Shown piece by piece: positions 923 through 62,865 of a stretch of 64,000 nt of DNA (the first letter of the stretch is position 1; each line of letters begins with the position of its first letter). The stretch comes from an uncultured Planctomycetota bacterium. Lineage in GTDB: Bacteria > JAJVIF01 > JAPKYR01. Below the pieces are notes generated by a model. The model was given only the letters and a program-made list of their open reading frames with translations, was not told the origin of the DNA and did no database searches. Location of the stretch: positions 50,040 through 114,039 of the forward strand of contig CAYGZQ010000003.1 in assembly GCA_964354375.1 (NCBI GenBank), written 5' to 3'. Made by a program: the position numbers and the translations under genes.

Positions 923-1142
923 AAGTGATCGGCCCGTCCGGGTCCGCCGCTTTTCCAAGCGGCATCTTATTGGCAAGAGCGGACTGGAAAGTCCGCGGAC
1001 CCGGACGCACCCGTGCTTTTGGACATTGGCGGCCCCTTCCGCGCTGTGATATCATTCTATGTTGTGTGAACGATGGTTTGCCGTCGCTTCTGCATCTAAT
1101 TAGTCGGGAGGGGACGATTAAGCCGGCTTACGGAGGTCTGCG

Positions 1143-3524
1143 ATGCGTTCGAAAGCTGCACCCCTGTTCCTGTTGTGCATTCTGCTGATCCTGCTCGCTT
1201 GTATCGGCTGCTCGCACGGCGGCGCGACGGGGCCGAACCCGTTGACGCCGGGACCGTCGGGCGATCCGAGTCTTCCGAGGAGCGGAGAGGTCCAAACGAG
1301 CCATTCGCTGCTCGGCCTGTATGAGTTCATCGTGGTTCCCGACGTACCTGAGATCAGGACGGTTCCGTTACGGGACGCGATGTTCCATCTGAACGCCCTG
1401 AGATTCCTCGAGCCGCCTCCCCCGGTCAGAATCGTCCTGTCCAACTTCCAGTATGACGGACAGACAGTGGATGTGGACGTGCAGCTCGTTCATCCCTTCG
1501 CCGGACTTCCGCAGTTCACCGGCTTCGATGTGTGCGGAATCGTGATAACGTCCGGAAGCATCTCGGGCTTCAGCGATCCCGATCTTGTTGTCGCGGGGGA
1601 GGGTGACACGAGGCTCTGGAACGCGGACGGTTTCACGCGCTGGTGGAATCCGAGAGAATTCCCCTACAACAGCCAGACCCCTATGTGGGGCTATATCAAT
1701 GGCAACAAGGGCACTCCCGACGAGACGGCGCATTACACGGCCACTTTGAACGGCTTCAAGTACTTTGCGGATGGTCTGGGAGCCGGCGATACTCTGTGGC
1801 TGCTCGACCCGCTTTCGAGGGGGGTTTTCACAGCGGGATCGGCGAATACGCGTCACTACAAGATTAGATTGGGCGCTGGCCTGGTCTTCAACTACGCCGT
1901 CGATGCGTGCTGGCTTCCGCCGGACGAGACCCCGGTTATCGTCCCCGACAGCTTCCCCCCAAGCGCGAATCGCGACGAGCCCTGGCTGTTGACTGTCACT
2001 GTCACCGAGAACACGCTGTACTATGATCCGAGCGCAGGGGCGGGCGGCGGCGAACTCGGTTTGGATATGAGCTGCTACGACTGGTTCGACGCAGATCAGA
2101 ACACCGTCCGTGCGGAATGCCCCGGTGTTTTTCAGCCGACGACATCCAGCGTCCCGGTCGGCGGCAACAGCGTCTACTCAACATACCACGTTGATTTGAC
2201 CAATCCCGTTCTCACTTCGGATGATCCGATTGAGATCTGGGTGTCCGCGGAAGCGGCGATGGACTACGATGGTTTTCTTCCGGGCAAGCCCACCGCGGCG
2301 TACCTGGCTCCTCTGCAGGTTGATGTGGAGCTCCTGACTCCTCAGCAGGGCATCGTGCTGGAGTGGGGACCCGAGGGTGTGATCGATCACGCCAACCGGA
2401 TCGCCAACAATGACATCGATCCGGCAGTCATTGTGGACGGCGACGGTGAGGTCCTGATCGCGTTTGTCTGGTACTACTGGAGCAGTGTCCTTTTCAATCG
2501 TCCCTTGTTCTCCAGGTCAACTGACCAGGGGCACACTTTCAACTATTGCGAACAGGGTTACTGGCAGTCGCACAGTGTCGATGCGGACTGGAAATGCTGG
2601 AACAGCAAGTACACTCTCGGATCGGACGGGCAGGCGTTCCATTCGTATTGGGCGCCGTGCGGACACACGCTCCACAAAGCGCCCTGGGGCGGAACCTATC
2701 CCGATGTGAACGGGGGCTCGCATTCCGGACCGGAAATGGAGCATGCGGGAGAGATGCTCTATACCGCTCAGGGCTATCCGATGATGTTCGGCGACAACGG
2801 CGGCACGATCATCATGCATCGCGGCGATTACCCCAACGTCGCGGGCACCGGAACCTGGCCAGTGTTTCAAGGAACCCCGTACACCCTGGTTGCGGAGGGC
2901 ACCTCCAACTACCTCAGCCTCGCCCGATCCGCAATGAAGACATCCGACGGGCTTTGCCACCTGATCTTCTGGCACGAGGGTCTGCCATACATCAGGATGG
3001 TCTCGACGACCGATATCTCCGGCCAGAACTGGGGAGCCCCGATCCCGGTCTTCGAGGGCCTTGCGGAAATATGGGTCGGGGCGAAGGACCCGAGCCTCTG
3101 GATCGACAAGAACGACGGCTTCCACACGTCGTTGGCCGCCGAGGACTGGATGGGTAACTACCATCTCATGTACGGCTATTCCGCGACGGTCGACGGCTGG
3201 GACGAAGGTGCATTCAAAAATATCATGATAGTCCCCATCGCAGACGGCCTTAACGACACCCATGTCGTCGTCTTTGACGCCTTCGACGAAACCTACGTGT
3301 TCCTGAGTTACGAGACCGCAGGGAATGTCTGGTGCCGATATAAGAAGTTCGAGGAGAGCGAGTTCTCCGACCCGATACAGGTCAACGAGCATTTCCCCGC
3401 TAGGCTTCCGGACATCTATCCCAACGGCGGCACCGGCGCAGTCTTCGTGTACGAGGCTGACGACGGTTCGGGCAAGGACCTGACCGACATCTTTTACCGT
3501 CTGGCTGAATTCAAGGAGGAGTAA
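1143..3524 (+). CDS. Secreted lipoprotein, paralog family member A. Conserved N-terminal domain of unknown function, then an Asp-box (BNR)-containing C-terminal region.
   Basis: Lipoprotein signal MRSKAAPLFLLCILLILLACIGCSHGG; RBS GGAGGT upstream. Shared family motifs: FTGFDVCGIVI, NADGFTRWWNP, NGFKYFADGLGAGD, NTRHY, FNYAVDACW. Asp-box SRSTDQGHTF. Confidence 0.75.
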   Translation: MRSKAAPLFLLCILLILLACIGCSHGGATGPNPLTPGPSGDPSLPRSGEVQTSHSLLGLYEFIVVPDVPEIRTVPLRDAMFHLNALRFLEPPPPVRIVLSNFQYDGQTVDVDVQLVHPFAGLPQFTGFDVCGIVITSGSISGFSDPDLVVAGEGDTRLWNADGFTRWWNPREFPYNSQTPMWGYINGNKGTPDETAHYTATLNGFKYFADGLGAGDTLWLLDPLSRGVFTAGSANTRHYKIRLGAGLVFNYAVDACWLPPDETPVIVPDSFPPSANRDEPWLLTVTVTENTLYYDPSAGAGGGELGLDMSCYDWFDADQNTVRAECPGVFQPTTSSVPVGGNSVYSTYHVDLTNPVLTSDDPIEIWVSAEAAMDYDGFLPGKPTAAYLAPLQVDVELLTPQQGIVLEWGPEGVIDHANRIANNDIDPAVIVDGDGEVLIAFVWYYWSSVLFNRPLFSRSTDQGHTFNYCEQGYWQSHSVDADWKCWNSKYTLGSDGQAFHSYWAPCGHTLHKAPWGGTYPDVNGGSHSGPEMEHAGEMLYTAQGYPMMFGDNGGTIIMHRGDYPNVAGTGTWPVFQGTPYTLVAEGTSNYLSLARSAMKTSDGLCHLIFWHEGLPYIRMVSTTDISGQNWGAPIPVFEGLAEIWVGAKDPSLWIDKNDGFHTSLAAEDWMGNYHLMYGYSATVDGWDEGAFKNIMIVPIADGLNDTHVVVFDAFDETYVFLSYETAGNVWCRYKKFEESEFSDPIQVNEHFPARLPDIYPNGGTGAVFVYEADDGSGKDLTDIFYRLAEFKEE

Positions 3525-3611
3525 CCCTCCGGGGCAAGGCTGCGGGGCTGTTGAAAAAGCCCGATCTGTAGGGGCACGGCATGCCGTGCCCCTGCGTGAT
3601 GCCGCATGAAT

Positions 3612-3636
3612 GGCAGGCTGGAAAGCCTGCCCCACA
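3612..3636. repeat. 25-nt hairpin element GGCAGGCTGGAAAGCCTGCCCCACA (8-bp stem, GGAA loop). This is copy 1 of 2, in the convergent intergenic region together with a second perfect 22-nt palindrome GGGGCACGGCATGCCGTGCCCC.
   Basis: An exact copy is found at 18741..18765. Both sit just downstream of stop codons. Confidence 0.6.
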
Positions 3637-3652
3637 TCCGGATACTCACCAT

Positions 3653-5737
3653 TCAGTATATCCTGCCGATCTCCAGGGATGCGAGAGGGATCAGCGCGGG
3701 GCCGACGGTGTCGAGCCCGCCTGCAATGCAAACATACTGGCCGTCCGTCGCGACCGCAGGCACACCTCGCTTGCGCAGAAGCGAATTGATCGAGAACCAC
3801 GTGTCGTTCTTCACGTCGTAGGCATCGACATTCGGGAGCATCATGGCTGCGCTGCCTCCGCCGAACGTGTAGAACCAGTCGTCGACGATGACAGAGACAT
3901 TCCCGTCGCGACCCGGAATGATCGGCGATCGCCACGCCCATGATTTCCAGCCCGGCTCGTGATAGAGCACGTCCTGTCTGTCAGGATGCCCGCCGCATGA
4001 GATGAGATACCCGTCTCCCGCCGCGAAGCCCATCGTGGATGTCTCGAATTCCAGGTCGGTCTGACCGACGAAATCGGGTCCGGGCGGTGCGAAACTGTAA
4101 GTCTCCTGATGAAAAACCCATGAGGACCCGGTGAAATGCCGTCCCCCGGCGATATAGAATGTGTCCGTCATGAGGGCGCATCCGAGGGTCGCGAGAGGCT
4201 CGGGAAGGGTGGGCGGAGATGGGTCGGGGGTTCCTGTCGCGAGGTCGATCACAAGGCACGTGTCTGTGACAACGGTCTCTGCAAATCGCCCCCCGAAAAG
4301 GTAGGCCTTGCCTCCGAGCGTTCCGCAGCCGAACCCGTCCCGCGGCTCAGGAAGGCTCCAGGGACTGTCCCAGGTGCCCGCATCGACATCGTATCTCTCG
4401 ACAGCATCTAACGCAGTGCCTCCGGCGCTTCCCCCGAGCACCCAGAAATATCCGTCCGCGAAAAATCCCCCGGCATAGCCCCTTGGCGTGGGCATGTTGG
4501 GACCCGCGGTCCACCAGATGTTGGGATGCTCCCCCACTACCGCGCTTTCGAAGTCGACATTCGTCGTCTCGTTCCCGAGCGAATCCTGTGCTCTCAGGCA
4601 TAACGTGTGCAGGACGGGATTGAGACCCTCAAGCAGATAGGGCGGCCCCCCGATTCCGGACACTTTGTTGGCCGTATCGAAATCGAGCGTGTTGCCTTCA
4701 ACCCAGTATAAATTATACGTCACCGGACCATTTGGATCGCTCGCAGTGCCGAAATCGACAAGAATGCCCTGCAAACCCGGCGCGGCACTGATGATACCCT
4801 CATCGGCATCCCATATCGGCGGGTCATGATCCGAAAGGTCGGTCACCTCGACATCAACCCACTGGAAAAGGTGGCTGACCACGAGCTGATCTCTCGCCGT
4901 GATGAGGCAGGGATAGGTTCCGGGAGGCATGCCCAAAACGTTCTCAACCGCGCCGGCCCACAAATCTCCGGACACGTGGGACAACTGCGTTTCCGTTCCC
5001 CCGAGCGCATCCGGCTCGATCGTCACTTTGATCGTGTCGCCCTGCCAGTCCGAGACATACACACTGACCAGGGCGTCGGCACCGGGAGCCATGTCTAGGG
5101 GATCCTGTGCGAAGTCGTGGATGTCGTACGCCTCCGGGCAATGGTCCGGCCAGCTTGCATCGATCGCGTACTGAAGATCGATGAAACCCGCACCGTCCGG
5201 GAAGCCCACGATGTATGTATCGGTGGAGCTTTACAATGGGCCAAGCGCGCGATCAGGGTCCTCGGTCTCGTATGCCCGGAAACCTGCCGGAGTGGCAACT
5301 GTCGGCGGAGCGTACAGGAGAGTGTACGCGTAGGCGTTCTTGAGAACATAATCCCCCAGGGGGTATACGATGCCCCTGACATCGCGTCCGGTCAGCTTCT
5401 TCGTGAAGTTCTTCACCGTCACGTCCGCGGTGACTTCGTGGTTGACCAGATCGAGATTGGTGACAGTGATCTTGAAGCAGTCGCTGCAGTACGGGGGCAT
5501 GAGGAAGTGTGTGACGTCATAGTGCGCTTCCGGCTGACGCGCGGGCACTACACCCACCGATCGGGTTTCCAGATCGATGCTGACATTGAAAATGCCCATC
5601 AGGGCGTGCCCCGATGCCCCCCGCCCGCCGGCCTGCTGCGCCAAAGGCGGGTCGAGAGGACTCGTCCGGTTGCATCCGGACGAGAGGCTCGCGCAAATGC
5701 CGAGCAGGACCGCCAGGGTCAGTAAGTTGTATCGCAT
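3653..5737 (-). pseudogene. Paralog family member D, lipoprotein with a C-terminal Kelch-repeat beta-propeller. It is split by an in-frame TAA at 5233..5231 into ORF 5231..5737 (signal peptide plus the start of the family domain) and ORF 3653..5209 (rest of the domain plus Kelch repeats). Disrupted, or read through.
   Basis: Both ORFs are in the same frame, separated by a single TAA and 7 sense codons. The family domain spans the stop: TGRDVRGIVY before it and LQYAIDASW after it. The 518-aa part has no signal peptide of its own and starts at GTG. Kelch signatures GGFFADGYFWVLGG…W. Confidence 0.5.
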
Positions 5738-5788
5738 ACCAATCCGCCCTCCTTGCGTGTGCTGGATACGCGGTTAGCGTCCGATTAA

Positions 5789-6451
5789 TCAATCTTGCGC
5801 ATCTTTCTCGCGCGACTCATCGATGGAATCCTCCTCCGACAGACCCGGCCCCTCGACGTTGCCGGCTCTCGGTGCGCCGTTCGGAAACCTCTGCTTGAGT
5901 GCCGACGCGAGCGTATGGAGAATGAGGATATGGACCTCCTGAATTCTCTGGGTGCTGTTGCCGGGCACGATGATCGGGTAGCTCACCTGGCTGGCGATCC
6001 TGCCGCCGTGTTTTCCGAGGAGTCCGACAGTGCTGATTTCCTGCTCCCGCGCCCACGCGGCCGCGTAGAAGAGGTTCATCGACTCGCCTGACGTCGATAT
6101 CAGCCAGAGCTGGTCGTCCGGTCTGACGAGCGCACGGACCTGCTGCAGGAAAATGCGATCGAACGAGAAATCGTTGGCGACCGATGTCAGGACCGCGGTG
6201 TCGGTAGTCAGGGACACGGCGGGCAGGGGAGCGCTGTAGTGCTCGAAAGAGCCGACCAACTCGGCCGCGACATGGGACGCGTCGGCGGCGGAGCCCCCGT
6301 TGCCTGCGAAGTAGAGAGTTCCGCCCTGCTCGATCAATGCGATGGATTTCCTGATTGCCCCCGACAGTGGCGGCCAGCAGGCCGTCAGCGCCGCCTCCGT
6401 GTGGGCGATGGAGGAGCGGAACATGTCCTCGATGAGCTGCTGGTACTCCAT
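5789..6451 (-). CDS. gmhA: D-sedoheptulose-7-phosphate isomerase (SIS domain, GmhA)
   Basis: FAGNGGSAADASHVAAELVG, ISTSGES and RIQEVHILILH are collinear with GmhA. It has a short acidic C-terminal tail. Confidence 0.8.
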   Translation of the reverse strand: MEYQQLIEDMFRSSIAHTEAALTACWPPLSGAIRKSIALIEQGGTLYFAGNGGSAADASHVAAELVGSFEHYSAPLPAVSLTTDTAVLTSVANDFSFDRIFLQQVRALVRPDDQLWLISTSGESMNLFYAAAWAREQEISTVGLLGKHGGRIASQVSYPIIVPGNSTQRIQEVHILILHTLASALKQRFPNGAPRAGNVEGPGLSEEDSIDESREKDAQD

Positions 6452-6562
6452 TATCGCTTCCTCATCCCGGTCCCTCGCGTCACAGTCATTCTATTGCGTG
6501 AATGGACGTACGTCAATCGCCCGGAAGGGAAATCGGCCTTTGGAGGTGCGCCGCGTGCCCTA

Positions 6563-6592
6563 AAAAAGTAACGGGCTCTTGTCGAGCCCGTT
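6563..6592 (-). terminator. Rho-independent terminator downstream of the 6642..7352 gene
   Basis: Minus-strand hairpin AACGGGCTCGACAAGAGCCCGTT followed by ACTTTTTTA. Confidence 0.5.
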
Positions 6593-6641
6593 GGAAAGAC
6601 CGTCTAGTTGACAACTACACGGTACAACCCGTGTTCCGGGA

Positions 6642-7352
6642 TCACTGGGGATCCCAAATGCCGGCCACACCGTCAAAGAAGACAATGTCGAGAAGCCCGA
6701 AGTAAACGGGCGCACTGATTCTGACCGTAGTAACATCCAGCCCCGGAATCGTTCCGGACGGGATGTAGTACGTATCGTTCAGAACCTGGTAACCGGGCGA
6801 GATCACCCCGCTCCAGTTGTAGATCGGGTCGCCAGGCATCAGACCGCCCGGGACTATCTCACCGTACTGACCATAAGACGCATAATGCATCTCTGCGGTC
6901 ACTTCGGCAACCGATCCGAACCCACCAGGACCGCCGATATTGAACCAGAGGAGCGACAGTATGTTGATGTCATAGTCGACCGTCTGGCCGATATAGTAGT
7001 ACGGCAGACCGGCGTTCGGGCCCGTGAGAATCGTACCCGCAGGGTTGTTGTAAGTCACCCAGCAGTTTATCAGGCCGAGAGGAATCAGGTTGATGTCAAC
7101 CTGAGCACCGCGGTTCTCGATCACGTAGAACCCGTCGTCGTTTCGACCCAGAGTCCCTTGCGCCAGAACATTGCCCTGGAGATCAGTGTAGGTGTACTCA
7201 CCTACGATGGGGCTCGACAGGTCGAAGGAGTTGAAGAACTGCTCCATCGACTGATTGCCCTTGTCAGGTGCGACTGGGTTGGAACCGTTTGAGCAGCCGA
7301 CGCCGATCATGAACACGGCAACAGCTGCAAGTGCCAACACTTTTCTTAGCAT
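6642..7352 (-). CDS. Hypothetical lipoprotein
   Basis: Signal MLRKVLALAAVAVFMIGVGCSNGS; RBS AGGAGG upstream; no recognisable domain. Confidence 0.65.
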   Translation of the reverse strand: MLRKVLALAAVAVFMIGVGCSNGSNPVAPDKGNQSMEQFFNSFDLSSPIVGEYTYTDLQGNVLAQGTLGRNDDGFYVIENRGAQVDINLIPLGLINCWVTYNNPAGTILTGPNAGLPYYYIGQTVDYDINILSLLWFNIGGPGGFGSVAEVTAEMHYASYGQYGEIVPGGLMPGDPIYNWSGVISPGYQVLNDTYYIPSGTIPGLDVTTVRISAPVYFGLLDIVFFDGVAGIWDPQ

Positions 7353-7611
7353 GCTTTGCCTCCTTTCTTGTAGAATGCAAACAATGGAAAAAGCGTTACC
7401 TGTTACTGTCGTGCTCGGAGACCTTTCAAAGCACTCCGCCTGACTGCAGCCCTTATCTCAAAGTGCCCACAACGAGGACAAATGGTAGCATTCCCCGAAA
7501 GAAAAATCAACATTTGAATGAGGATTTAATGCAATCTGACACGATAATTTTACATGGGCCGAGACTGCGTTCCCGAGTGGTTCGAGTCTTTCCCCGGCCG
7601 TGAGCCTTCAT

Positions 7612-10284
7612 TCAGTATATGATTACGGCGATCTCGTCAACCCGGGGTCGCGCGTGCGCGTCCGGCGTAGCGCCGCTTCCAAAGCCGATCGCGGCCCTTA
7701 CACGTCCGATACCGTTCGGGTCCAGGTCTGCCAGGCGATACCTCGCCCAGTTGAACGGCCAGCCATATTCATTCCGCCCCCAGCCATATCGATCGTTGTA
7801 CGTGGCGGGGGTCTCGTCGAACCTGACGTTATTGTTGTTGTAGTACTGCGCGGTATAGTACGGGGTACCCTCGATGTAGTCGGCGGGACGGGCCTCACTG
7901 TATTCGTAGTAGTATTGCTGTTTGTTGTGCAGGCTCGGATCGTCGGGGACAGTGCCGACGCTCAGTCGGGCGTAGTTATCCCAGCATTCGTTCATCGGCG
8001 TCACCTGGGCGCCGAAAATCAGCTCTATGTACCATTCCTGCGTCGTTGCGGCTAAGGCCGGATCGGTCAGTATGGGCAGCGGGGGCGATGCGATGACACT
8101 CCAGATGTGCTGCCGCATATAGCCGGAGTCCGGGTCCATCATCCAGCATCCCCCGGATACTGCGCCACCGTATCCGGGTCTCTCGAACTGCCTGTAGAAC
8201 GCCTGCTCATTTCCGCCGTACCCCATGGTCCACGGGAACTTGTCCTGCGAGGCGCCGTCCGGCTCCGCGTTCTCGAGCTCGATGAACGCCCACTCGGTAG
8301 AGCCGACACTCTCGGAGTTCTTGTTACCCGCGACCGACCGGGCTTTCACCATGAAGTAATACGATCCTCCGCTGTTGTATGCGCTCTGCCCGCTCAGCAG
8401 GTTCAGGCATGACCAAACCTCCGGCGGAGTTGTCCCTATCTCTTTCCAGTTTTCCTGGTCGTCGTGAGGATCGCCGTCCCGGTATACGGCCCACTCGGCC
8501 ACAACCCCCGACACCTGGCTTCCGTCCCACCTCACGACTATCGCCGGTATATCGCTAGGGTTATTTATGTACTCGTAAGAATGAAGCGCAGTGCGTTTCA
8601 CCGAAAGCTCCAGATTCAACCCGGACGTGGGGAACTCCGGCGGGTCAGGCAGCTTGACATCCACCATCAGCGAAGCCTCGCTGTATCCGAAGGTGCCGTT
8701 CAGGTCTTTCACTCTGGTATCCACCGCATAGGAGCCCTCATCCGGGAAGCAGATGTCGATAGAGCCGTTCCCGAACGGGTGAATAGCGTCTATGTTTCCC
8801 GTCCCGTCGTTATACTCGGGCGGTGAGTCGTCTCCTATCTCCCAGGCAAAGACAAGGTCTTCGTTCAGGTCCTGGCAGTCGTAGTAGTTCTCGACGTTAT
8901 AGGTATGCACCTCGCCGGCTGTTACCTCGATCGGACCTGTGACAGGCCCCAACTGCGGCGGAGAGTTCGTACCTACATATGGCTCGTACACCTGGTAAAG
9001 GGCCAGGGGCGCATCTTCAGAGCCCTCGAACGATATCGGTAGTTCTTCAGGGCCCACTGTATAGCTTCCGAGGGGGCTGGTTGCCGCCACCAGCACCAGG
9101 GGGTCGTAGGTCTCGAAATTGTCCGGCACCAGCTCGGCGGTGAATGTCGAGATGTGAGCAGAATAGACATCCGAGCCTCCGACCTCCGTGGCGGGCACGA
9201 AATCCACGCCCAGGTCCGGCGATCCGATAAGCACCTGGTCGATCCCACCTGCTCCCTGCCACGTCGAGACATCGATCCTGACCTTCAGCACTCCACCGGA
9301 TACCGGGCAGTCCTCCAACTGCGGGTCGAAATAGAGTGAGTTAGCCTCTTCGTAAATGTCGATGTTAAAGGGCTCGAGGGAGTTGGCCGAGATCGGGAAG
9401 TCATCGAAGGACTGCGGGGGGATGTTGGCGGGTCGTTCCCAGCTTGCATCGACAGCATAATTGAAGACCATGAAGTCCGCGGCGGCAGGACCGAAATTCA
9501 GGGAGTAATGGCGGCGATTGGTGGACGAGCATGAGAAGCGACCCCGTCCAACCAGAACCAGGGGCTCCATGACCTCGTCGTTCGCACCCAGTCCGTCGGC
9601 GAAGTACTTGTAGCCGTTCACCGTGCTCGTGAAATGTGCGGCCTTGTTCGGCTTGCCCAGAAGCCCGTCCTTGTACCCGAGAATCCCGCCGCCGGTGAAT
9701 TCCGTGGGATTCCACCATCGCGTGTAACCGTCCGCGTTCTCGAGCCTGGTCTCGTCCGCTCCGGGCAGGACCAGGTACTCGCCGAGCAGGTAGTTCTCCC
9801 ATGAACCCCTGGAGATGACGATCCCGCGAACGTCGAAGCCGGTGTACTCGGGATGGCCCGGTAGAGGGTGCTGCAGGATTATGTCCAGAGATACTTTGCC
9901 TTCGGGAACATCGACTTCGAGCGTCTTCGGATCATAGGTCAAGTATTTGAGCATGACCGGCTCGAGGAGCGAGACGACATTCAGGTGCGCCGAGCTCTCT
10001 CGAAGGGGCACGATCTCAACCGTCTTCGTTCGGAGGTCCACCTGGAACCGCCACATGCCCCACAGGACGCGGTTTCCGCCCCCGATTTCGCCTTGGGATG
10101 TAAGCCGCATCCGATCGATGCCGGATGATGGATCGGGTACTACCGGGGGTGTTTGTCCGCAGCCCGGAAGCAACAACGCTGCGACCAAGAGGAGCGCTGC
10201 GGTAGCCGGCAGATGATTCGTCTTGGTTCTCATGATTCCTGAGGCCTTCCTGACGGGTTGGGACGCATGGCGACCCTCAAACAA
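7612..10284 (-). CDS. Secreted protein, paralog family member B (conserved N-terminal family domain plus a long C-terminal region)
   Basis: N-terminal hydrophobic signal. Motifs YTGFDVRGIVI, NADGYTRWWNP, NGYKYFADGLGAND, NRRHY, FNYAVDASW match the other three members. Confidence 0.75.
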   Translation of the reverse strand: MFEGRHASQPVRKASGIMRTKTNHLPATAALLLVAALLLPGCGQTPPVVPDPSSGIDRMRLTSQGEIGGGNRVLWGMWRFQVDLRTKTVEIVPLRESSAHLNVVSLLEPVMLKYLTYDPKTLEVDVPEGKVSLDIILQHPLPGHPEYTGFDVRGIVISRGSWENYLLGEYLVLPGADETRLENADGYTRWWNPTEFTGGGILGYKDGLLGKPNKAAHFTSTVNGYKYFADGLGANDEVMEPLVLVGRGRFSCSSTNRRHYSLNFGPAAADFMVFNYAVDASWERPANIPPQSFDDFPISANSLEPFNIDIYEEANSLYFDPQLEDCPVSGGVLKVRIDVSTWQGAGGIDQVLIGSPDLGVDFVPATEVGGSDVYSAHISTFTAELVPDNFETYDPLVLVAATSPLGSYTVGPEELPISFEGSEDAPLALYQVYEPYVGTNSPPQLGPVTGPIEVTAGEVHTYNVENYYDCQDLNEDLVFAWEIGDDSPPEYNDGTGNIDAIHPFGNGSIDICFPDEGSYAVDTRVKDLNGTFGYSEASLMVDVKLPDPPEFPTSGLNLELSVKRTALHSYEYINNPSDIPAIVVRWDGSQVSGVVAEWAVYRDGDPHDDQENWKEIGTTPPEVWSCLNLLSGQSAYNSGGSYYFMVKARSVAGNKNSESVGSTEWAFIELENAEPDGASQDKFPWTMGYGGNEQAFYRQFERPGYGGAVSGGCWMMDPDSGYMRQHIWSVIASPPLPILTDPALAATTQEWYIELIFGAQVTPMNECWDNYARLSVGTVPDDPSLHNKQQYYYEYSEARPADYIEGTPYYTAQYYNNNNVRFDETPATYNDRYGWGRNEYGWPFNWARYRLADLDPNGIGRVRAAIGFGSGATPDAHARPRVDEIAVIIY

Positions 10285-10529
10285 GCTCCCGACTCTGTTT
10301 ACCCAGTCACGACAACATTTAGATACATCTTACGAGAGTTTCGATAGCAGCCCGGGTTTCCCGCTGCCTGTCCCCACCCTCCTGCATGCGCTTCCGATGA
10401 ACGTAAATATTATAACAGAATACATGGTTTGTTAAAAGAAAAGCGGCGTACATGTCCGCTTCCTGCAATAAGTGGGAAAAAAGCCCGGCGTCATGCCGGG
10501 CGGATCGGGATTCCATTGACTGTGCTGCT

Positions 10530-12767
10530 TCAGCCTGGGTTGCCCTCGGTCTGATCGAGCAGGTTGTTTCCCTCCTCGTTGGGAGCTCCTTCCTGAGGCG
10601 GAGCGGTGGGCTGAAGTAGCCTCGACTGCTCATCGATCGCAGCCTGGCGTTCCTGCTCGGCCTGTTCCTTCCTCGCCGTCAGCTCGTCGACCTTCTTCTG
10701 TACGGTGTCTCTCAGCTGGCTGAGCTGATCCCGCATCTGCTGGGTCAGAGGACCGTTTGGCGCCGGAATCGGCACCTCCGGCACCAGGACCTCCGTTGCG
10801 TCCGACGATTCACCGGCGACCGAAGGCTCGGTTCCGGCAGAAGACGTATCGATATCGGCCCCATCGGCGGCGGAGCCTGTCAGCCCTTCCGACTGGCCTG
10901 CGGAAGCAGCCGGGGTCTCGGTCGTTTCCTCTTTGGCCTTGTCGATCAAGGCAATGAACGGGGCGTCAAGCGACTCAAGCGTCAGACCCATCTCATCTTC
11001 CGGCAGCACCGGGTCGGTCCAGGCCTCCGGGCGCACTCCTCCGGCGAGCTCGAGCGCCCTGTCATCGAGACTGATCATCTGGTTCAGCACAGACACGACT
11101 TTCTGCTCAAGCTCGAAATCCTCGCTTGAATACTCATGGGCAAGGCTCAGGTCGGAAATGTCCCTGGCCATGAGCTGCTGCCGGGCGATATCAAGCTGAG
11201 CCCGCTGCCAATGAGCGAATGGAGCCATGTCCTCGAGCTCAAGGGAGCGGTCTATGTTCTTCAGCGCGATGGCGAAGAAGCCCTGTTCTTGCCTCTTGAG
11301 ATCTTCCGGGAGCTCGGGGAACGTTCCTCCGAACGCTTCCGGGTTTGCCTGGAACTGAGCCCAGATGTCCTGCATCCATTTTCCCTCAACTCTGAAAGCT
11401 CTCGTGGCCCAGAGGTTGGCCGCGAGGTAGCGCAACCGCGCTTCGCCCATCTCCACCTCTACTCGGTTATCGAGTGCGACATCAAGCTTGGCGGCGTTTG
11501 TCCTGAGCGCTTCCTGGTAGTCGGCGGCGGCCAGGTCCCATTTCTCGTTGATGACATGATGCATGGCGCGAATCTCGGGATCGTAGATGACGATCTTCAT
11601 CGTCGCCTCGTCCGCCCTCACCGCCTCCGATACCCGCTGCATCGGATCCTCGGCCTTCAGGTACAGGACTCTTATGGTCGCTTCCTCGTAGTCGGCGATC
11701 ACTTCCTCGTCTGTGACAACAAGGTTCCCCTCGGCAGGCAGCTCAAGCTCGCCCGCCTCCACTTTCTTTCTCTTCTCCTCGAGCAGTTTCTGCCTGATCC
11801 CTTCCTTGGCGGACTCCCAGTCGGGACCGCTGGCGCCTGTCCTGCTCAACACTGTCACGAGCCATGCACCCATGTAGTCCGGCTGGTTGGTCGTGATCGT
11901 GAGACTGGTCTCCCCCACGGGAAGGCTGAAAGCGCTGTCGATGACGGCTTTCGGGAGATCCTTGGAGTCATGCCTCACCATCGGCACCAGTCCGCCCGCT
12001 TCGCTCGAGGATGCGTGCTCCGAGTACTGCTTGGCAGCGTCGGAAAACGGCAGTCCGCCCACAATCTCTCCCCGGATAATGTCGCACCGAGCCGAGAGCT
12101 CCGCCATGATCTCGGTTTCCTTCTGCTTCGAGATCGTTGTCACGTACTGCTGAGCCGTCAGAGTCTGGCGAATGATTCTGCGAAGTCGGACGAGAGAGTT
12201 GGTCGGATCGTACTGCTTCAGCTTCATCTCGAACGCCTTGTCTTCCTTGGCGGAGGTGAAGAGGTCGGCGATTCGCTGAAGGATGCTCTTCGAGCCGGCC
12301 GACTCGACCTGAGGCATGAGCTGGTTGCGGTACTCGTTGACTTTCTCCTCGACCTGCTCGTCCGTCACCGTGATGCCGGTTGCAGCGGCCTTGATGTCGA
12401 AGTACTCCATGTCGATCATCTGACGGAGCGTCGAATACTTGACCGAAGCCGTCCATTCCTCGGGGTGCAGCACAGCCTCGCTGGAGGACTCCTGCCTCTT
12501 GAGCTGCGCGTCATAATCCCGGTAGAAATCCTCGTACGTGATCTTGTGATCCTGGATGGTCGCGATGGCATCGCCGGGACCGGTTGTTTGCGATCCGGGA
12601 CCCTGCTCCCTCTGGTTTGCGCATCGCGATCCGCCGAAGCTAAGGCTCCCGCCGAACACGAGCGCGAGACCCGCGATTATGTATGCTATTCGGATCTTGT
12701 CGGGGTCTCTGAGAGTCGCAACGAGACCCTGTCCTCTTACTTTTCGACGACGTTTCTTACTGGCCAT
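10530..12767 (-). CDS. PpiD/SurA-like periplasmic chaperone (N-terminal membrane anchor, degenerate parvulin-like domain, E/Q-rich C-terminal tail)
   Basis: Basic N-terminus then a TM segment (IAYIIAGLALVFGG). The AGGLVPMVRHDS…FSLPVGETS segment resembles a parvulin domain. Overall architecture resembles PpiD. Confidence 0.45.
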   Translation of the reverse strand: MASKKRRRKVRGQGLVATLRDPDKIRIAYIIAGLALVFGGSLSFGGSRCANQREQGPGSQTTGPGDAIATIQDHKITYEDFYRDYDAQLKRQESSSEAVLHPEEWTASVKYSTLRQMIDMEYFDIKAAATGITVTDEQVEEKVNEYRNQLMPQVESAGSKSILQRIADLFTSAKEDKAFEMKLKQYDPTNSLVRLRRIIRQTLTAQQYVTTISKQKETEIMAELSARCDIIRGEIVGGLPFSDAAKQYSEHASSSEAGGLVPMVRHDSKDLPKAVIDSAFSLPVGETSLTITTNQPDYMGAWLVTVLSRTGASGPDWESAKEGIRQKLLEEKRKKVEAGELELPAEGNLVVTDEEVIADYEEATIRVLYLKAEDPMQRVSEAVRADEATMKIVIYDPEIRAMHHVINEKWDLAAADYQEALRTNAAKLDVALDNRVEVEMGEARLRYLAANLWATRAFRVEGKWMQDIWAQFQANPEAFGGTFPELPEDLKRQEQGFFAIALKNIDRSLELEDMAPFAHWQRAQLDIARQQLMARDISDLSLAHEYSSEDFELEQKVVSVLNQMISLDDRALELAGGVRPEAWTDPVLPEDEMGLTLESLDAPFIALIDKAKEETTETPAASAGQSEGLTGSAADGADIDTSSAGTEPSVAGESSDATEVLVPEVPIPAPNGPLTQQMRDQLSQLRDTVQKKVDELTARKEQAEQERQAAIDEQSRLLQPTAPPQEGAPNEEGNNLLDQTEGNPG

Positions 12768-17164: not shown

Positions 17165-18646
17165 CTACGCAGGCGCTTTCCGGATTGGCACCTTAAGCTC
17201 GCTTACAGCGGGGATTGTGAGGATAAATTCGGCGCCGCCGTCGGGATGGTTCCGCGCGATCAGCTCGCCCCCATGATGTTTCGCAATCGAGTAGCTCACC
17301 GAGAGCCCCAGGCCCGTGCCTTCCCCCGGAGGTTTGGTCGTGAAGAACGGATCGAAAATGCGCTTCAGTGACTCTTCGGGGATTCCCGGTCCCGTGTCCC
17401 TGATTCTGATCTCTATCAAATCCTCCTTGCCCGACGATTTTACGAGCCTCGATGCTATCCGAAGAGAGCCGCCGTTTTCCTTCATCGCCTGCGCCGCGTT
17501 CATGGCGAGGTTATGGATGATCTGCTGTATCTGCTTCGGATCGACCACGACCTGCGGAAGCTCATCGTCAAGGTTCCATTCGACGGTCACCCGCCGAAAG
17601 ATCGGGTGGAACTTGAAAAAGTCCAGCACCTGAATCACCAGCGCATTCAGGTCCGCTTTCTGCGGCTGGATCATCGCGGGGTTCGCGAAATCCAGAAGCC
17701 TTCGTATGATGTCCTTGATTCTGTCGATGTTCGCGAGCACTCTCTGGTACGGCTCCTCGTTGCCGCCCTCGCGTCTGACCCTTTTTGCGAGCATGTCGAT
17801 GACCGTGTAGATTCCGGCGAGGGGATTGTTGATCTCGTGGGCTATGCCCGCAGCCAGGAAGCCGGTGCTCGCGAGCTTGTCGGCCTGAAGAAGCTGCTCC
17901 TCGACCCTCACCATCTCGGTCCTGTTCTCCACGATGACAAGCACGCCTTCGACGCGCTTCTCGGGGCCCATAAGCGGCACGGCTGTGAGGCTCACCGTCA
18001 GGTCCTCCGGACCGCCTCCTCTGAGCGGCTGATTCGCAAGCGAGACCTCCTTCCCGCCGAGCCCGGCTTCGATCGCATCCGTGAGATCAGGGTTCATCGA
18101 TTTCGATATCCTGTCGAACGGCTGATCCACGAGCGTCGCCCGCTTGCCAAGCTGCATCAAGTCGGTGAATGCCCTGTTCACGGCAAGGAACCGACGATCC
18201 GTGTCAAGCGAGAAAATGCCGATCGGAGCGGCCCTGATTATCGAGCTGGCCAGCTCCGCCCGCTTGCGTATCACCTCCTCCAGCTTCTTGCGCTGCGTGA
18301 TATCGTGCGCGATTACCAGCACCCTCTCGATATCCCCGGATTCTCCCGGGATCGGGCTCGCCGACACGTACGCCGGGAACACGTCGCCGTCCGCGCGCAT
18401 AAGCAGAAGCTCGCCGTGCCAGTCCATTTGTTTGAGGGTCTGGTCGAAAAGATCCTCCGCCAGGGAGCGCGAATGCTCCTCGACCCCGCGTAGCAGGTCC
18501 CTTCCGATAATCCGTTTGGGCGGAATCCCCAGGGCCTTGCTTGCCGCAGCGTTGATGTACGTGACACGCCTCTCGGGATCGCACACCATCACCATGTTGT
18601 GCGTCTGCTCGAGATAGCGCGACAGCATTTCGGGGTTGTCGATCAT
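17165..18646 (-). CDS. Cytoplasmic PAS-domain sensor histidine kinase
   Basis: HisKA H-box [10 protein letters not shown]. HATPase_c motifs DTGPGIPEE and [12 protein letters not shown]-like repeats in the N-terminal half. No TM segment. Confidence 0.85.
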
Positions 18647-18817: not shown

Positions 18818-21800
18818 CTACCGTCGCTTTTTCTTCTTCGGTTGCTTCCGAAATGAGAATGGGCGTCTTATCCCGTGAACCACTTTGCTGGCGGATTCCG
18901 CAACCGCGCCGCCGATGCTCGTGGCGCGGGATTTCGCCATCTCGAAATTCGCTTTGGCCTGGGCGTTGTGCGGGTCACAATCCAGCGCTTTCGCGAATTC
19001 GCGCGTCGCCTGAGTGTACAGAGCTTCCCGGAAGTAATAGCTTCCGATCGCGACGTGGGCTTCCGCGGAGTTCGGGGCTGTCGCCACGGCGAGCTCGTAT
19101 TCCTCCCTGGCCTTGTCCTTGTTGCCGCGCTCGTAGAGGATATCGGCCATACGAATGTGACCCTCTGCAAAGCCCGGAAACAGGTCGAGCGATTTCTGGC
19201 AGTGCCTCAGCGCGAGCTCGAGTTGGCCCTTGTCCTTGTATGCCTGCGCAAGCTGGAAATTCAGTGAGAAGTTGTCCGGCTTGATCTCCAGACCCTTCTG
19301 GAACTCGGCGATCGCCTTGTCGTACATCCCCTCTTCCATGTAGGCCGTGCCTTTGGTGACGTAGTGGTGTATCACCGGCGCGGCGGGGAATCTGCCGGGA
19401 AAAATCCGCTGTGTTTCGCCGACATCGCCAAACTGGATCACGACGCACGCCATGCTCTCCTTGATCGACGATCCTGCTCCCTTGTACCTGGAGCCTGCGA
19501 GCGAGATGATCCGCTCGCACGCCTCCTGCGTGTCTATCGTGCTTGTGACGCAGTTGCGGATTTCCACGTCCGACAACACGCGCCCGAGGTCCGATGTCCC
19601 CACGATGAGGACGTCTCCCGCCCTCAAATGTCTTTCGGCGGTCTCGACCTGCACCGTCAGCTCTTTCCCCAGCATGCGCTTCTCGTCGCCGCGTTTCATG
19701 AACGTGCGTATCGTGGCGCTGCGAAGCAGGTAGGCGAAGCAGGCCCCGACCTTGGCGAGGTAAAGGCGATTCTGGCTGATGGACGCGATAAGGAGCTCCG
19801 CGCCGATCGATCCTATCTTGTTGAGCCTGAAGGCCTCCTGGTTGACGATCCCGTTTGCCCTCTGCATCGCCGATATCGCGAGCTGGTTCGGGTCCTCAAG
19901 TATGTCGAGCCGGCTCAGAGACGAGTAGGAGTAGACCTGCTCGGCCTCTCTGAGCGCGAGGTCGGCGCACCTGAGGGCCTCATCGACCTGCGGGCTGATC
20001 CCCGATGCGACTCCGAACGCGCCTCGTATGCCGATGCTGGACGGGGGATAGCGCTGCGCAAACGTCATCCTCGATTCTTCCTCAGGTGGGGCCTCTTCCT
20101 CCGTCGACACCATCGCGAGGTAGCTCGAATTCCCGGGGATAAACGACAGGATCGATTCCTCGATCTCCGCCGCTGCTGCGCTTGCCTGGTAATCGTCCAG
20201 ATCCTCGATCAATTCCCCCCAGCTCGAATAGCGGGCCGTGTAGTCCTTTCTGAGCGCGCGCTCCAGAATCCGTCTCAGGTCGACTGATATCCCGGTGGCT
20301 TCGAGCCTTTCTCGCGGGTCCTCGTACACGTGCATCGCCGATATCTCGTGCGGCTCGCCGTGGAAGAGGTCGTGGCCGGTGATCAGGTAGTAGATCACAA
20401 GCGCCCACGCGTACACGTCCGACGCACCGGTCTGCTCGCCCAGCCCCGTTATCTGCTCCGGGCTGAGATACTCCGCGCGGTTGAGTTTCATGGGCGTGTC
20501 GTAGAAAACGTCTCTCTCGAAGCCCGACAGCTTTACTTTGAGCTGGGGTTTGGACACGACAAACGCGCTCTCCGGCGACAGACGCCCGTACACCTCGAAC
20601 CCTTCCGCCCTCAAATAGATCAGGGCCTCCGCGATCAGTCTTCCGACTTCGACCGCGTACCCCTCGCTCATCGGACCGTACTCGGCGACATAGTCGGCCA
20701 GAGTATGCGTCCTCAGCTCGCTAACGAAGAAATACGCGCCCTTATCGCGGCCGTGGTCGAGGACGCGGATAAGTCCCGGATGCTCGTATTCCGCCGCCAG
20801 CTTCATCCGCCCGTTCCAGGCCTCGTCCAGCTCATGGGTTTTGGGCACTCTGTAGAACCAGAGCATTACCGGGGTATCGGTGCCAAGGTGAGTTCCCGCG
20901 TACAGAACCAGGTCCTTCTCGGGTGACAGCCCGTATGCCCCTCCGATGTTCGTGAGCCGCTCTTCGAGACGGTATTTCCCCTTGATCGTCGTTCCCTGGT
21001 CTATCAGATGAATGTTGATGCCGCTGTCGGCGCTGCCGATAAGATGATCGATATCGTCGGCCAGATCGTCGTAACTCTGGTACCGCTGGAGCGGGTCCTT
21101 CTCCAGCATTTTGATCATGATGTCGTGGAAAACGAGGGGAATCTCATATCTTTCCTGGATTTTCGCCAGTGCTTCCGTCTTGATGTGGGCATCGAAGATG
21201 TCCTGGGGAAGGCCGTCGAAGAGGAAGTCGCCGGTCACTAGCCGGAACAGTATTCCCCCGAGAGCGTAGATGTCGGAGCGCTGGTCCACCGGAACATCGT
21301 CCTCGTCCAGCCACACTTCCGGCGACGCATACTGGTAACCCGTCGGCGGAACCCCGTATGTCTTGCGTATGAACCTCTCGGTCTCGTGCAGACGAAAGTC
21401 TTTGAGGAGCACCTCGTCGCCGCGCGGGTTGATGAGGATATGCTCCGGCCTGAGAGCGCCATGGGCCTCCAGAGATCCCTTGGTCTTGAGATAGGAGAGA
21501 GTGGCCAGCACCTTCCTGATAATCCTGAGAGCCTGTTCCGGCGCCAGCTTTTTTCGATCTTCGAGAACCGCAGCAAGAGAGGAGGTAACGTGCGTCTCCA
21601 CAACGTAGTACTGGTTCTTGTGCCATCCCTGGGCGATGAGATCGACCACGTGAGGGTGTTTCAGCTGCGCCCGCCCGTAGAGGTCCTTGTTGATCGCCCT
21701 GATGAAATCCTCTTCCCGCGACAGCTTATCGTCGTAGAATTTGATCGCGACGAACTTGTCGCGGCCGCGCTCGAGGGCCTTGTAGAGGCCGGAAAACTGG

Positions 21801-22687
21801 CCGCTGCCGAGCTCCTCCAGGACCTCGTAGCGGTTGTCCACGATCTCTCCCGCGAGGCTCCCCTCGGGTCGGGCCTTCTTGAAGCTGACCGCCGCCAGGG
21901 CGTACGCGACCGCCTCCTTGAACTCCGTCAGCGATGCGTAGCGCTTGGACGGATTCTTCTGCAGCGCCGCGATGAGAATCTCCTTTACCGCCATCGGAAT
22001 CTGCTTGTAGTACTCGATGTGCGGGGTGGCGTCGACATACACCTGCTGGTACCGGACCTTGGCGACATCGCTGTCATGGAAAAGCGGGAAACCCGTCAGC
22101 ATGTGATAAAGCACCATCCCGATCGAGTAGATGTCGGCCGCCTGCGTGATCTCTCCAATCCTGTGGATTTGCTCGGGTGATACGTACTTCGGGTCCTCCC
22201 ATCTCTTCCGCGGCTCCTCGTCCATCATCTCCATCGCTCGACCGACATACCAGTCGGCAAGCTTCACGTCGGTCAGCTCGTCATTAACAAGTATATTGTT
22301 CGGTTTGATCGCCAGGTGCGGGGGAAGTCCGATGTTGTATCCCGTTTCCAGCGCCTCGATCACTTTCAGCGTAATCGACAAGGCGCTGGTGAGGTCCACG
22401 GTCTCGTTCTCGATCAAATATTCTTTCAGGCTCATCGGCAGGAACTCGGTCGCAATCTTCATTCGGTCCGAATGCCTGCCGACCTCCCATACCGGCACCA
22501 GGTTGGGATGCTTGATCGTGCGAAGATTGTTCGCGACATTCTCGCATTCGTCGATGAACCCCTCGTGGACTCCGTAGGGTTCCTTGAAGATCTTTACGCA
22601 TGCCACGCGCGGGTCTTTGGGGTCTTTCCCCTTGTATACAAGGGCCGCTTCACTGCCTCGTATGCGGTCTACGGGTTCAAAAGGCAT
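18818..22687 (-). CDS. Multidomain signalling scaffold: three tandem kinase-like domains lacking catalytic residues, a degenerate PP2C-like domain and C-terminal TPR repeats
   Basis: Start is at the internal ATG 22687, which has an AGGAG RBS; the ORF-track extension to 23065 lacks support. Catalytic-loop equivalents are HLAIKPNN, HGALRPEH and YGRLSPES (no Asp). DFG equivalents are ADW, DFR and GFE. PP2C-like segment is LYLAKVGACFAYLLR…GDVLIVGTSDLG. TPR examples AYMEEGMYDKAIAEFQKGLEIKPDN. Confidence 0.8.
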   Translation of the reverse strand: MPFEPVDRIRGSEAALVYKGKDPKDPRVACVKIFKEPYGVHEGFIDECENVANNLRTIKHPNLVPVWEVGRHSDRMKIATEFLPMSLKEYLIENETVDLTSALSITLKVIEALETGYNIGLPPHLAIKPNNILVNDELTDVKLADWYVGRAMEMMDEEPRKRWEDPKYVSPEQIHRIGEITQAADIYSIGMVLYHMLTGFPLFHDSDVAKVRYQQVYVDATPHIEYYKQIPMAVKEILIAALQKNPSKRYASLTEFKEAVAYALAAVSFKKARPEGSLAGEIVDNRYEVLEELGSGQFSGLYKALERGRDKFVAIKFYDDKLSREEDFIRAINKDLYGRAQLKHPHVVDLIAQGWHKNQYYVVETHVTSSLAAVLEDRKKLAPEQALRIIRKVLATLSYLKTKGSLEAHGALRPEHILINPRGDEVLLKDFRLHETERFIRKTYGVPPTGYQYASPEVWLDEDDVPVDQRSDIYALGGILFRLVTGDFLFDGLPQDIFDAHIKTEALAKIQERYEIPLVFHDIMIKMLEKDPLQRYQSYDDLADDIDHLIGSADSGINIHLIDQGTTIKGKYRLEERLTNIGGAYGLSPEKDLVLYAGTHLGTDTPVMLWFYRVPKTHELDEAWNGRMKLAAEYEHPGLIRVLDHGRDKGAYFFVSELRTHTLADYVAEYGPMSEGYAVEVGRLIAEALIYLRAEGFEVYGRLSPESAFVVSKPQLKVKLSGFERDVFYDTPMKLNRAEYLSPEQITGLGEQTGASDVYAWALVIYYLITGHDLFHGEPHEISAMHVYEDPRERLEATGISVDLRRILERALRKDYTARYSSWGELIEDLDDYQASAAAAEIEESILSFIPGNSSYLAMVSTEEEAPPEEESRMTFAQRYPPSSIGIRGAFGVASGISPQVDEALRCADLALREAEQVYSYSSLSRLDILEDPNQLAISAMQRANGIVNQEAFRLNKIGSIGAELLIASISQNRLYLAKVGACFAYLLRSATIRTFMKRGDEKRMLGKELTVQVETAERHLRAGDVLIVGTSDLGRVLSDVEIRNCVTSTIDTQEACERIISLAGSRYKGAGSSIKESMACVVIQFGDVGETQRIFPGRFPAAPVIHHYVTKGTAYMEEGMYDKAIAEFQKGLEIKPDNFSLNFQLAQAYKDKGQLELALRHCQKSLDLFPGFAEGHIRMADILYERGNKDKAREEYELAVATAPNSAEAHVAIGSYYFREALYTQATREFAKALDCDPHNAQAKANFEMAKSRATSIGGAVAESASKVVHGIRRPFSFRKQPKKKKRR

Positions 22688-22837
22688 CAAACACTCCTGC
22701 GGAATGGTGTACCCACATCCGTCCGAATGATTATACCATTCAGACGCTTTTGAGGGCGCAAGTGTTCCCGACATATGGCTGTCGCGTAGCATGCGCGGGG
22801 TGGGGCTGTTGAAAAAACCTGTTTCGATGCCGAATCG

Positions 22838-22991
22838 GGTGGCACCCTCAGGCGGAAAGACTGCGCGAGCAGGCTTTCTGCCTGAGGGTGTTCGATCTAT
22901 TAATCCCTCTATCCATGAGGCATTCAGGTGATTGGTCCGGCACCCCCAGTCCGCCGCGGCGGACGAGGACTCGCCTGAGGGTGCCACGCCT
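22838..22991. promoter_or_regulatory. Divergent regulatory region with three copies of the motif GTGGCACCCTCAGGCG, one direct and two inverted
   Basis: Copies at 22838..22855, 22874..22890 (revcomp, 1 mismatch) and 22973..22991 (revcomp, exact 16-mer). The first two form a 17-bp-stem hairpin. Confidence 0.45.
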
Positions 22992-23045
22992 GATATGCCC
23001 TCCTTGCGCGAAATTGCGCTTTTTCGACAGCCCAGGACGCGCATG

Positions 23046-23075
23046 TTGCGCGTTTCCCGAATCATGTGATATACT
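23046..23075 (+). promoter_or_regulatory. Putative sigma70 promoter (TTGCGC…TGaTATACT, extended -10) for the radical SAM gene pair
   Basis: Extended -10 TGATATACT lies 38 nt upstream of the GTG start, with RBS AGGAGAGG. Confidence 0.4.
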
Positions 23076-23113
23076 CTGGTGGCTGTAAAAAAAATTTCAG
23101 GAGAGGAAAGAAA

Positions 23114-24619: not shown

Positions 24620-24728
24620 CCATCCCCGGTTTTCCCACAGCATTCCTGCGAATCCTTCTCTTCGCATGCTCGTCATAAGGCTGCCCAGACCCCTGCGTGT
24701 GCGCCGTGCTATACTCGATACTAACCTG

Positions 24729-31830: not shown

Positions 31831-32619
31831 TTATCGCGCAAGATTGTTGGAGATACTCAGGAGCTGATCCGCCACGCTCACAGCGCGGGAGTTGGTCTCA
31901 AACGCGCGCTGGGCGATGATGAGCTGGATCAATTCCTCGACGATTGACACATTGCTGGCCTCAATGAAGCCCTGGGCGATCTGGCCGAAACCTTCCTCGC
32001 CGGGAGTTCCGGTGACCGGGTCGCCCGAGGCGTCGGTCTGCCGGTAAAGGTTCTGGCCTATGGTTTCCAGACCTGCAGGGTTCTGGAACCTGACCAGTTG
32101 TATCTGCCCTACCTGCGTGAGGGTCGTGTCGCTGCCCACCTGCACCGACACGGTGCCGTCGCTCGCCACTTCGACACGCACGGCATCGGCCGGGATCGTG
32201 ATGGGCGGCTCGATATAGAGCCCGTCCGCGGTCACCACGTTACCCTCGGAGTCGAGCTTGAACGTTCCGTCACGCGTGTAGGCCGCCGATCCATCCGCCA
32301 GCGTGACCTGGAAAAACCCGTCGCCGCTGATCATCAGGTCCAACGGGTTCCCGGTCGACTGTGCGGCGCCAAGGAGGAAGATTTTCTGGGTCGCGATCGG
32401 CCTTACACCGTGACCAACCCTGAGGCTCGTGGGAACCATCGAACCGGTCAGGGTGCTCTGACCGGCCCTGCGGTAGGTCTGGTAGAGAAGGTCCTGGAAA
32501 TTCAGCCTGTCCCGCTTGAAGCCGGGAGTGTTCGCGTTCGCGATGTTATTCGCGATAACGTCGGTGTTCATCTGCTGGGCCTGCATGCCCGTTGCCGCCG
32601 TGAATAACGCTCGAATCAT
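31831..32619 (-). CDS. flgG: Flagellar basal-body rod protein FlgG
   Basis: MIRALFTAATGMQAQQMNTDVIANNIANANTPGFK N-terminus; C-terminal rod-protein motif. Confidence 0.85.
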   Translation of the reverse strand: MIRALFTAATGMQAQQMNTDVIANNIANANTPGFKRDRLNFQDLLYQTYRRAGQSTLTGSMVPTSLRVGHGVRPIATQKIFLLGAAQSTGNPLDLMISGDGFFQVTLADGSAAYTRDGTFKLDSEGNVVTADGLYIEPPITIPADAVRVEVASDGTVSVQVGSDTTLTQVGQIQLVRFQNPAGLETIGQNLYRQTDASGDPVTGTPGEEGFGQIAQGFIEASNVSIVEELIQLIIAQRAFETNSRAVSVADQLLSISNNLAR

Positions 32620-33646: not shown

Positions 33647-33779
33647 AGGAGAACACCGGACCTGGGGGCGATTCTTCTCGCCCATTCTGTTTATCGGAAA
33701 GAGAGTGGGGGGCTGAACGAGGAACGGGATGCAAGAGGCGGGAAAAGTGGACCCGAATGGCCTCCGGCTTCCGATGAAA

Positions 33780-62598: not shown

Positions 62599-62865
62599 CC
62601 TTTCCCGCTCGCTTCCGACCTTGGTCACCGCTTCTCCGCCGGAATCCCAGGGGAATATTTTCTGCCGGTTAAGTGGTCTGGACGGTTGACAGAGCCGTAA
62701 TAAGATTATAATCTTTAATGTGTCGGTTTCGGGGGACATTCTATACCTCTGGCGATGCTTCTTGCTCGTATCCCATTTTCAAGTGGAACTCGTTGGGTTC
62801 TGCCATATTATTCAAGACGCCTGCCGAACTTAGAACCGGCCGCGCGTTAACATGGAGGCGAATCG

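Follow-up and report, generated by a model that had tools for sequence, protein, structure and literature searches.

A lineage-specific ochre codon divides the gene of a putative Kelch-propeller lipoprotein

The closest described counterpart of the locus discussed here is the nonsense (ochre) pseudogene or loss-of-function allele, in which a one-base change turns a sense codon into a stop at a conserved position while the orthologues are intact, the genetic code is standard, and automatic annotation reports two adjacent coding sequences in the same frame. All of this applies to our case, which looks like a textbook ochre nonsense change. Where the gene in our window (the whole 64-kb stretch of DNA that was analysed) differs from such pseudogenes is in the lack of secondary decay: there are no additional stops or indels and dN/dS is unchanged, so the lesion would have to be either extremely young or not real.

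Programmed readthrough and natural suppression in bacteria and phages present a comparable picture, namely an in-frame stop followed by a long conserved coding region, and the UGA of the Q-beta coat protein is a well-known example. The known cases involve leaky UGA or UAG codons in a conserved context, and the stop itself is conserved among relatives. In contrast, the stop in the window is UAA, is found in a single lineage and has no associated signal. As for the encoded protein, it has in common with Kelch proteins (KLHL proteins, Keap1 and NS1-BP, or the bacterial mutarotases of the YjhT/NanM type) a six-bladed propeller, which is apparent both in the sequence and in the predicted fold. Unlike them, it lacks a BTB or BACK domain; besides the propeller, the same chain comprises a signal peptide, an N-terminal domain and two beta-sandwich modules.

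The locus occupies 3653..5737 of the minus strand, to which all coordinates of its parts refer. These 2085 nt, or 695 codons, are translated in a single frame with one internal stop, at codon 169. We regard the entire interval as the ancestral gene on the basis of its translation and of an orthologue search and alignment, in which it gives a gapless 2085-nt match to locus L001 at 91.0% nucleotide identity. The Shine-Dalgarno-like sequence AGGAGG (5748..5753 in the upstream sequence listing) is located 10 nt 5' of the ATG at 5737. From this ATG the N-fragment ORF (5231..5737) encodes 168 amino acids followed by TAA; it begins MRYNLLTLAVLLGICASLSSGC, a hydrophobic leader and then Cys22, and contains the signal peptide plus the first part of an N-terminal domain shared with other genes of the window. 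The premature TAA is at 5231..5233, where relatives have GAA or GAG for glutamate. Between it and the first possible restart there are seven sense codons, SSTDTYI (5210..5230), which still align with the orthologues (ESSTETY[IV]). The C-fragment ORF (3653..5209, 518 amino acids) starts with GTG at 5209..5207, ends with TGA at 3655..3653, and has neither a signal peptide nor an upstream Shine-Dalgarno sequence. The two fragments are identical to P0025 (168 aa) and P0023 (518 aa), respectively, NCBI-sourced members of the orthologue cluster that lie on the same 121,783-bp contig. The ORF list and the translation thus agree exactly with what the initial annotation had reported for the TAA (5233..5231), the seven sense codons and the GTG start, and also for the missing signal in the ORF 3653..5209.

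Two ORFs in the same frame are in themselves of little significance in this DNA. Same-frame pairs are numerous across the window, which has 59% GC, and about a third of co-directional neighbouring ORFs share a frame. A scan for such pairs as a control of assembly quality was uninformative, because a GC-rich window contains many long spurious open frames. What takes the case for a split gene beyond chance is that homology to uninterrupted proteins runs on without a break past the stop (E = 0, 100% query coverage).

The gene product is probably an exported, putatively lipid-anchored multidomain protein, judging from its sequence. Its predicted order of parts is a signal peptide with Cys22, a beta-rich N-terminal domain, two beta-sandwich modules and a six-bladed Kelch propeller; this order was derived with the help of an AlphaFold model of P0001, the closest intact orthologue (mean pLDDT 76.5). 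The signal peptide (residues 1-22, 5672..5737) ends in a lipobox-like ...LSSGC that we call putative, as its -3 residue is not the canonical L/V/I; its cysteine is conserved in at least 90% of the orthologues, and residues 5-22 are helical in the model. The N-terminal domain (approximately residues 44-211, 5105..5608) was delimited by a BLASTP match of P0001 residues 21-233 to the paralogue 7612..10284, by other paralogue matches and by the strands of the model. It has no match in Pfam or NCBIfam. The model is of low confidence here (pLDDT 30-80), too low for a meaningful fold search. Around residue 169 it places strands at 151-155 and then at 170-178 and 185-195, also with low pLDDT. The next part (approximately residues 212-400, 4538..5104) appears in the same model as two all-beta, Ig/FN3-like modules with pLDDT 73-96; their boundaries are approximate and the fold class is taken from the model.

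The propeller itself (approximately residues 405-694, 3656..4525; pLDDT about 85-95) is supported by several lines of evidence. In the C-terminal part, PF24681 matches with 64.3 bits against a cut-off of 50, and PF01344, PF13415, PF13418 and PF13964 are above their cut-offs as well. A profile of the orthologues finds Kelch proteins in the PDB with a best E of 6e-46, and in Foldseek the predicted propeller aligns with solved Kelch domains at TM 0.76-0.85, the value for the Kelch domain of NS1-BP being 0.85. These matches and the agreeing fold bear out the earlier statement that the C-fragment carries Kelch repeats. Assignment to the N-acetylneuraminate mutarotases (NanM/YjhT) was considered and rejected, with scores of 18 bits against a cut-off of 416 for NF010730 and 14.8 against 256 for TIGR03547 in NCBIfam.

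The N-terminal domain is common to four lipoprotein-like genes of the window: 1143..3524 (plus strand), 3653..5737 (minus), 7612..10284 (minus) and a gene from about 62,860 on (plus, ~62860..64000), which is partial and runs off the end of the window. It extends over roughly 200-300 amino acids in these genes, in none of which it has a Pfam or NCBIfam match, and each of them continues with a different C-terminal part, Kelch repeats being present in one only. Among its motifs are G(Y/F)DVRGIV, also seen as (Y/R)D(V/I)RGIV, before the position of the stop, and YA(V/I)DASW after it; FIDLQYAIDASWPDH is likewise part of the domain common to the paralogues. Since the paralogue alignments carry conserved motifs on both sides of residue 169, the stop cuts a single homology unit, and the earlier observation that the family domain continues across the stop is correct. 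By sequence, the family sharing this domain is expanded in the genome. It is an uncharacterised protein family, defined by an unnamed N-terminal domain present in several paralogues.

The read-through sequence was searched against a collection of 5.8 billion proteins. The search returned ten full-length orthologues of 688-707 amino acids (54-91% identity, 91-100% query coverage), each encoded by a single uninterrupted ORF, and two further orthologues that are truncated; glutamate occupies the column of the stop in 12/12 of those aligned. The nearest of the relatives, the ENA contig L001 that carries P0001, is collinear with 1022..11717 of the window at 90.7% identity. Synteny is kept over 10.7 kb and none of the five neighbouring genes is disrupted in either genome; in the conserved surroundings of the Kelch lipoprotein gene there are a SIS-domain gene and a SurA-like gene. 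L001 has GAA at codon 169, and so does the JGI contig L002, which was found by a pattern scan of metagenome contigs. L001 and L002 were sampled independently; their mutual identity is 99.8%, hence we count them as one lineage. P0024 is a third intact version, within the same 90% cluster, and the more distant loci L003-L006 are single ORFs with GAA or GAG at codon 169; the more distant genomic loci belong to MAGs labelled Planctomycetota or "uncultured bacterium". A scan with a degenerate 26-mer gave no match in genome contigs and, in metagenome contigs, only the GAA relative L002.

Thus a stop in the column of codon 169 is absent from every relative compared (the 12 orthologues and L001-L006). 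As the closest relatives L001 and L002 read GAA and the gene has no indels, the stop amounts to one G>T change on the gene strand; position 5233 of the plus strand is A here and C in the relatives. In our alignments this G>T transversion is confined to one lineage and affects the first base of a glutamate codon that is otherwise invariant. The alternative foreseen in the initial annotation, that the orthologues are naturally two separate genes, does not hold, given the ten single ORFs with glutamate.

One distant orthologue is also split, in another place and by another kind of lesion. In L010:3001-5053 (JGI Ga0366832_1013544) the gene is divided into ORFs of 435 and 265 amino acids. What divides it is a frameshift, accompanied by a small deletion, close to residue 400-410, where the Kelch domain begins. 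The synteny is the same: a 236-aa gene, the SIS gene, and then the Kelch lipoprotein gene. As read from the two sequences, this disruption is independent of the stop in the window. It suggests that the gene is dispensable, or else that MAG assemblies occasionally break it.

In our opinion the locus is most likely a recent nonsense allele, either a very young pseudogene or a loss-of-function allele that segregates in the population. The recent nonsense pseudogene had been among the explanations offered initially, and we favour it because the orthologues are intact, the glutamate is invariant, the change is of one base and TAA works as a stop in this DNA. According to this scheme, one G>T transversion would have converted the invariant Glu169 codon GAA into the ochre codon TAA. 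Translation from the ATG at 5737 would then stop after 168 residues and yield a signal-bearing stub with only a part of the N-terminal domain. The 525 codons that are left would at best be weakly translated from a GTG that has no ribosome-binding site, and the product, having no signal peptide, would remain in the cytoplasm. With a stub on one side and a weakly made, unexported C-fragment on the other, the gene would be inactivated. We infer that the base call is real and, from the sequence of the fragments, that they are without function. That a gene for this Kelch lipoprotein can be lost follows from L010, where it is independently frameshifted.

How old could such a lesion be? According to the Nei-Gojobori comparison of the window with L001, codons 1-168 have a dN/dS of 0.173 and codons 170-694 one of 0.127, as compared with 0.115 (a 793-aa lipoprotein), 0.122 (the SIS protein) and 0.153 (a 236-aa protein) in the intact neighbours. 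Nine more distant orthologues also served to polarise the amino-acid positions at which the window differs from P0001. Polarisation of DNA substitutions by L001 and L002 was dropped, the two being one lineage, and the protein outgroups were used instead. On the 3' side of the stop, the window lineage accounts for 20 derived amino-acid changes and the P0001 lineage for 21. There are no indels in the gene relative to L001 and no second stop, and neither dN/dS nor the polarised changes indicate relaxed constraint downstream. It follows from this lack of decay that the event was very recent, or that it is an error, or that the downstream part is still translated. In other words, measured against the 9% divergence from L001 the mutation is very young, unless it is not real or the codons behind it are still in use; the complete absence of decay is equally compatible with an error, with readthrough and with a very recent mutation.

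The G>T class is a normal one among the 187 differences, of which it makes up 13, and differences are no denser around the site than is usual. One more of them, E173D (GAG>GAT, codon 173, 5219..5221), is situated 14 nt downstream of the nonsense change, in a column where glutamate is again invariant in all 12 orthologues. Its proximity may be fortuitous, the two changes may have arisen as a cluster, or the consensus may be poor at this point.

The last of these bears on the possibility that the stop is an artefact of assembly or sequencing, the true codon 169 being GAA in an intact 694-aa gene. The T could come from low coverage, from oxidative G>T damage, or from a minority strain variant chosen by the assembler. 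Indeed the source is a metagenome-assembled contig, the codon is a single base away from the ancestral one, the constraint downstream is not relaxed, and a second G>T at an invariant glutamate is found close by; G>T is known as a damage-type artefact. A search of the contig index with the exact sequences of both fragments gave no match, and hence no second assembly of the site. The quality of the surrounding sequence argues against an artefact. A look-up of the neighbouring SIS protein yielded Logan contigs from two different runs, L008 (ERR4334731), which corresponds to 5561..6779 of the window, and L009 (ERR3804373), which corresponds to 5542..6631. Both are 100% identical to the window, hence the same strain is present in both runs, and the absence of mismatches over 1.1-1.2 kb in independent assemblies speaks for a high accuracy of the adjacent consensus; the matches end about 310 nt before the stop, so the site itself is outside them. 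The ends of the two contigs in the N-fragment ORF are no more than 20 nt apart, and this shared break may reflect a drop in coverage or a bubble caused by strain variation. Further, the five genes of the 10.7-kb syntenic block have no disrupted frame, and from this synteny and these intact neighbours it appears that the assembly is not generally error-ridden; the normal local density of differences also counts against an error. Random substitution errors create a stop in only a few percent of cases, and genuine disrupted genes are common in bacterial genomes, much more so than wrong consensus bases that by chance produce a stop. On balance we consider an artefact unlikely and treat the nonsense change as probably real, which brings up the other explanations, all of which accept the TAA.

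That the full-length protein is made regardless, by stop-codon readthrough, an ochre-suppressor tRNA or a programmed recoding signal, had been raised initially and would account for the 525 downstream codons preserved in frame at a dN/dS of 0.127; also, the tRNA search covered the 64-kb window of the genome only. We give this explanation hardly any credence. The stop is absent from every relative, those of 91% identity included, and a conserved recoding site is thereby excluded. TAA ends other genes of the window, in one instance at a position matched by an orthologue's end (see below). The search for suppressor tRNAs that had been recommended found no tRNA gene within the 64-kb window, Rfam has no match within 4900..5500, and the RNA fold of the 131 nt around the stop is no better than that of shuffled sequences (z = -0.38). 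The stop stands in the context UAA-A, and UAA, which RF1 and RF2 both recognise, shows less readthrough in bacteria than either of the other stops (PMC5289835). A related pair of ideas, which we find very improbable indeed, is that the TAA is real and the full-length lipoprotein is produced in useful amounts through an ochre-suppressor tRNA or unusually high UAA readthrough, or that the split is an ON/OFF switch of a surface protein. In the latter version the stop would be a polymorphism of the population, with the downstream part kept by frequent reversion or recombination. The intact state of the 525 codons behind the stop would be compatible with these ideas. Quite improbable, too, is a functional fission into a 168-aa lipoprotein stub and a 518-aa Kelch protein made from GTG 5209. 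P0025 and P0023 are annotated as separate proteins in the NCBI-sourced record, the GTG follows the stop by 22 nt and termination-reinitiation is conceivable, and the C-fragment contains the whole of the Kelch and beta-sandwich modules. However, the break interrupts a homology unit that every orthologue and paralogue has in one piece, and the C-fragment has no signal peptide, yet its domains are exported in every homologue. Nor does a Shine-Dalgarno sequence precede the GTG (something similar to one stands upstream of about 40% of naive starts in the window). The two-gene arrangement exists in no relative, since the sole other split orthologue, L010, is broken elsewhere and by a frameshift. Thus the recent nonsense allele remains the reading that we prefer.

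The behaviour of TAA in this DNA can be judged from the window as a whole. In a greedy set of 41 long ORFs the terminators are TAG (19), TGA (15) and TAA (7, the codon-169 stop included), i.e. six other long ORFs end in TAA. In the gene 1143..3524 the final ...LAEFKEE-TAA coincides exactly with the ...LAEFKEE-TAG at the end of its orthologue, and beyond this point similarity is lost. Within the 64-kb window TAA is a normal stop. An alternative genetic code was rejected, given that about 40 long ORFs, of up to 1415 amino acids, are uninterrupted and that all three stop codons serve as terminators. Selenocysteine uses UGA and pyrrolysine UAG, and both were ruled out for a stop that is UAA; frameshifting was ruled out as well, the two parts being in the same frame.

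The practical meaning of the nonsense allele concerns annotation. The coding sequences of 168 and 518 amino acids should be treated as one disrupted gene rather than as two genes or two protein families, and it would be wrong to list the fragments as a new short lipoprotein or a cytoplasmic Kelch protein. In biological terms, a conserved, syntenic surface Kelch lipoprotein would be dispensable in at least one lineage, with which the second, frameshifted orthologue agrees. If the stop proves to be polymorphic in the reads, the locus would illustrate, on a small scale, how a cell-surface protein can vary by loss of function. It has no bearing on the biology of the genetic code or of recoding. 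The uncharacterised family that shares the N-terminal domain may merit attention of its own.

Several other observations were made in the course of this comparison. The window copy of the paralogue 7612..10284 (minus strand) has a signal peptide with a lipobox (...LLLPGCGQ...), and the public gene call for its orthologue at L001:1636-4125 (829 aa) begins past it, with MSQGE...; this call is probably truncated at its N-terminus. The genes 23066..24619 and 24666..26222 (both plus strand) are tandem paralogues, 52% identical over about 497 amino acids, and the former matches B12-binding and radical SAM domains. Adjoining paralogues are also encoded at 31831..32619 and 32855..33913 (both minus strand), with 33% identity over about 270 amino acids. 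Finally, 18818..23065 (minus strand) encodes a 1415-aa protein with tandem matches to Ser/Thr protein-kinase domains and with C-terminal TPR repeats, and it is adjoined by a gene for a PAS histidine kinase at 17165..18646.
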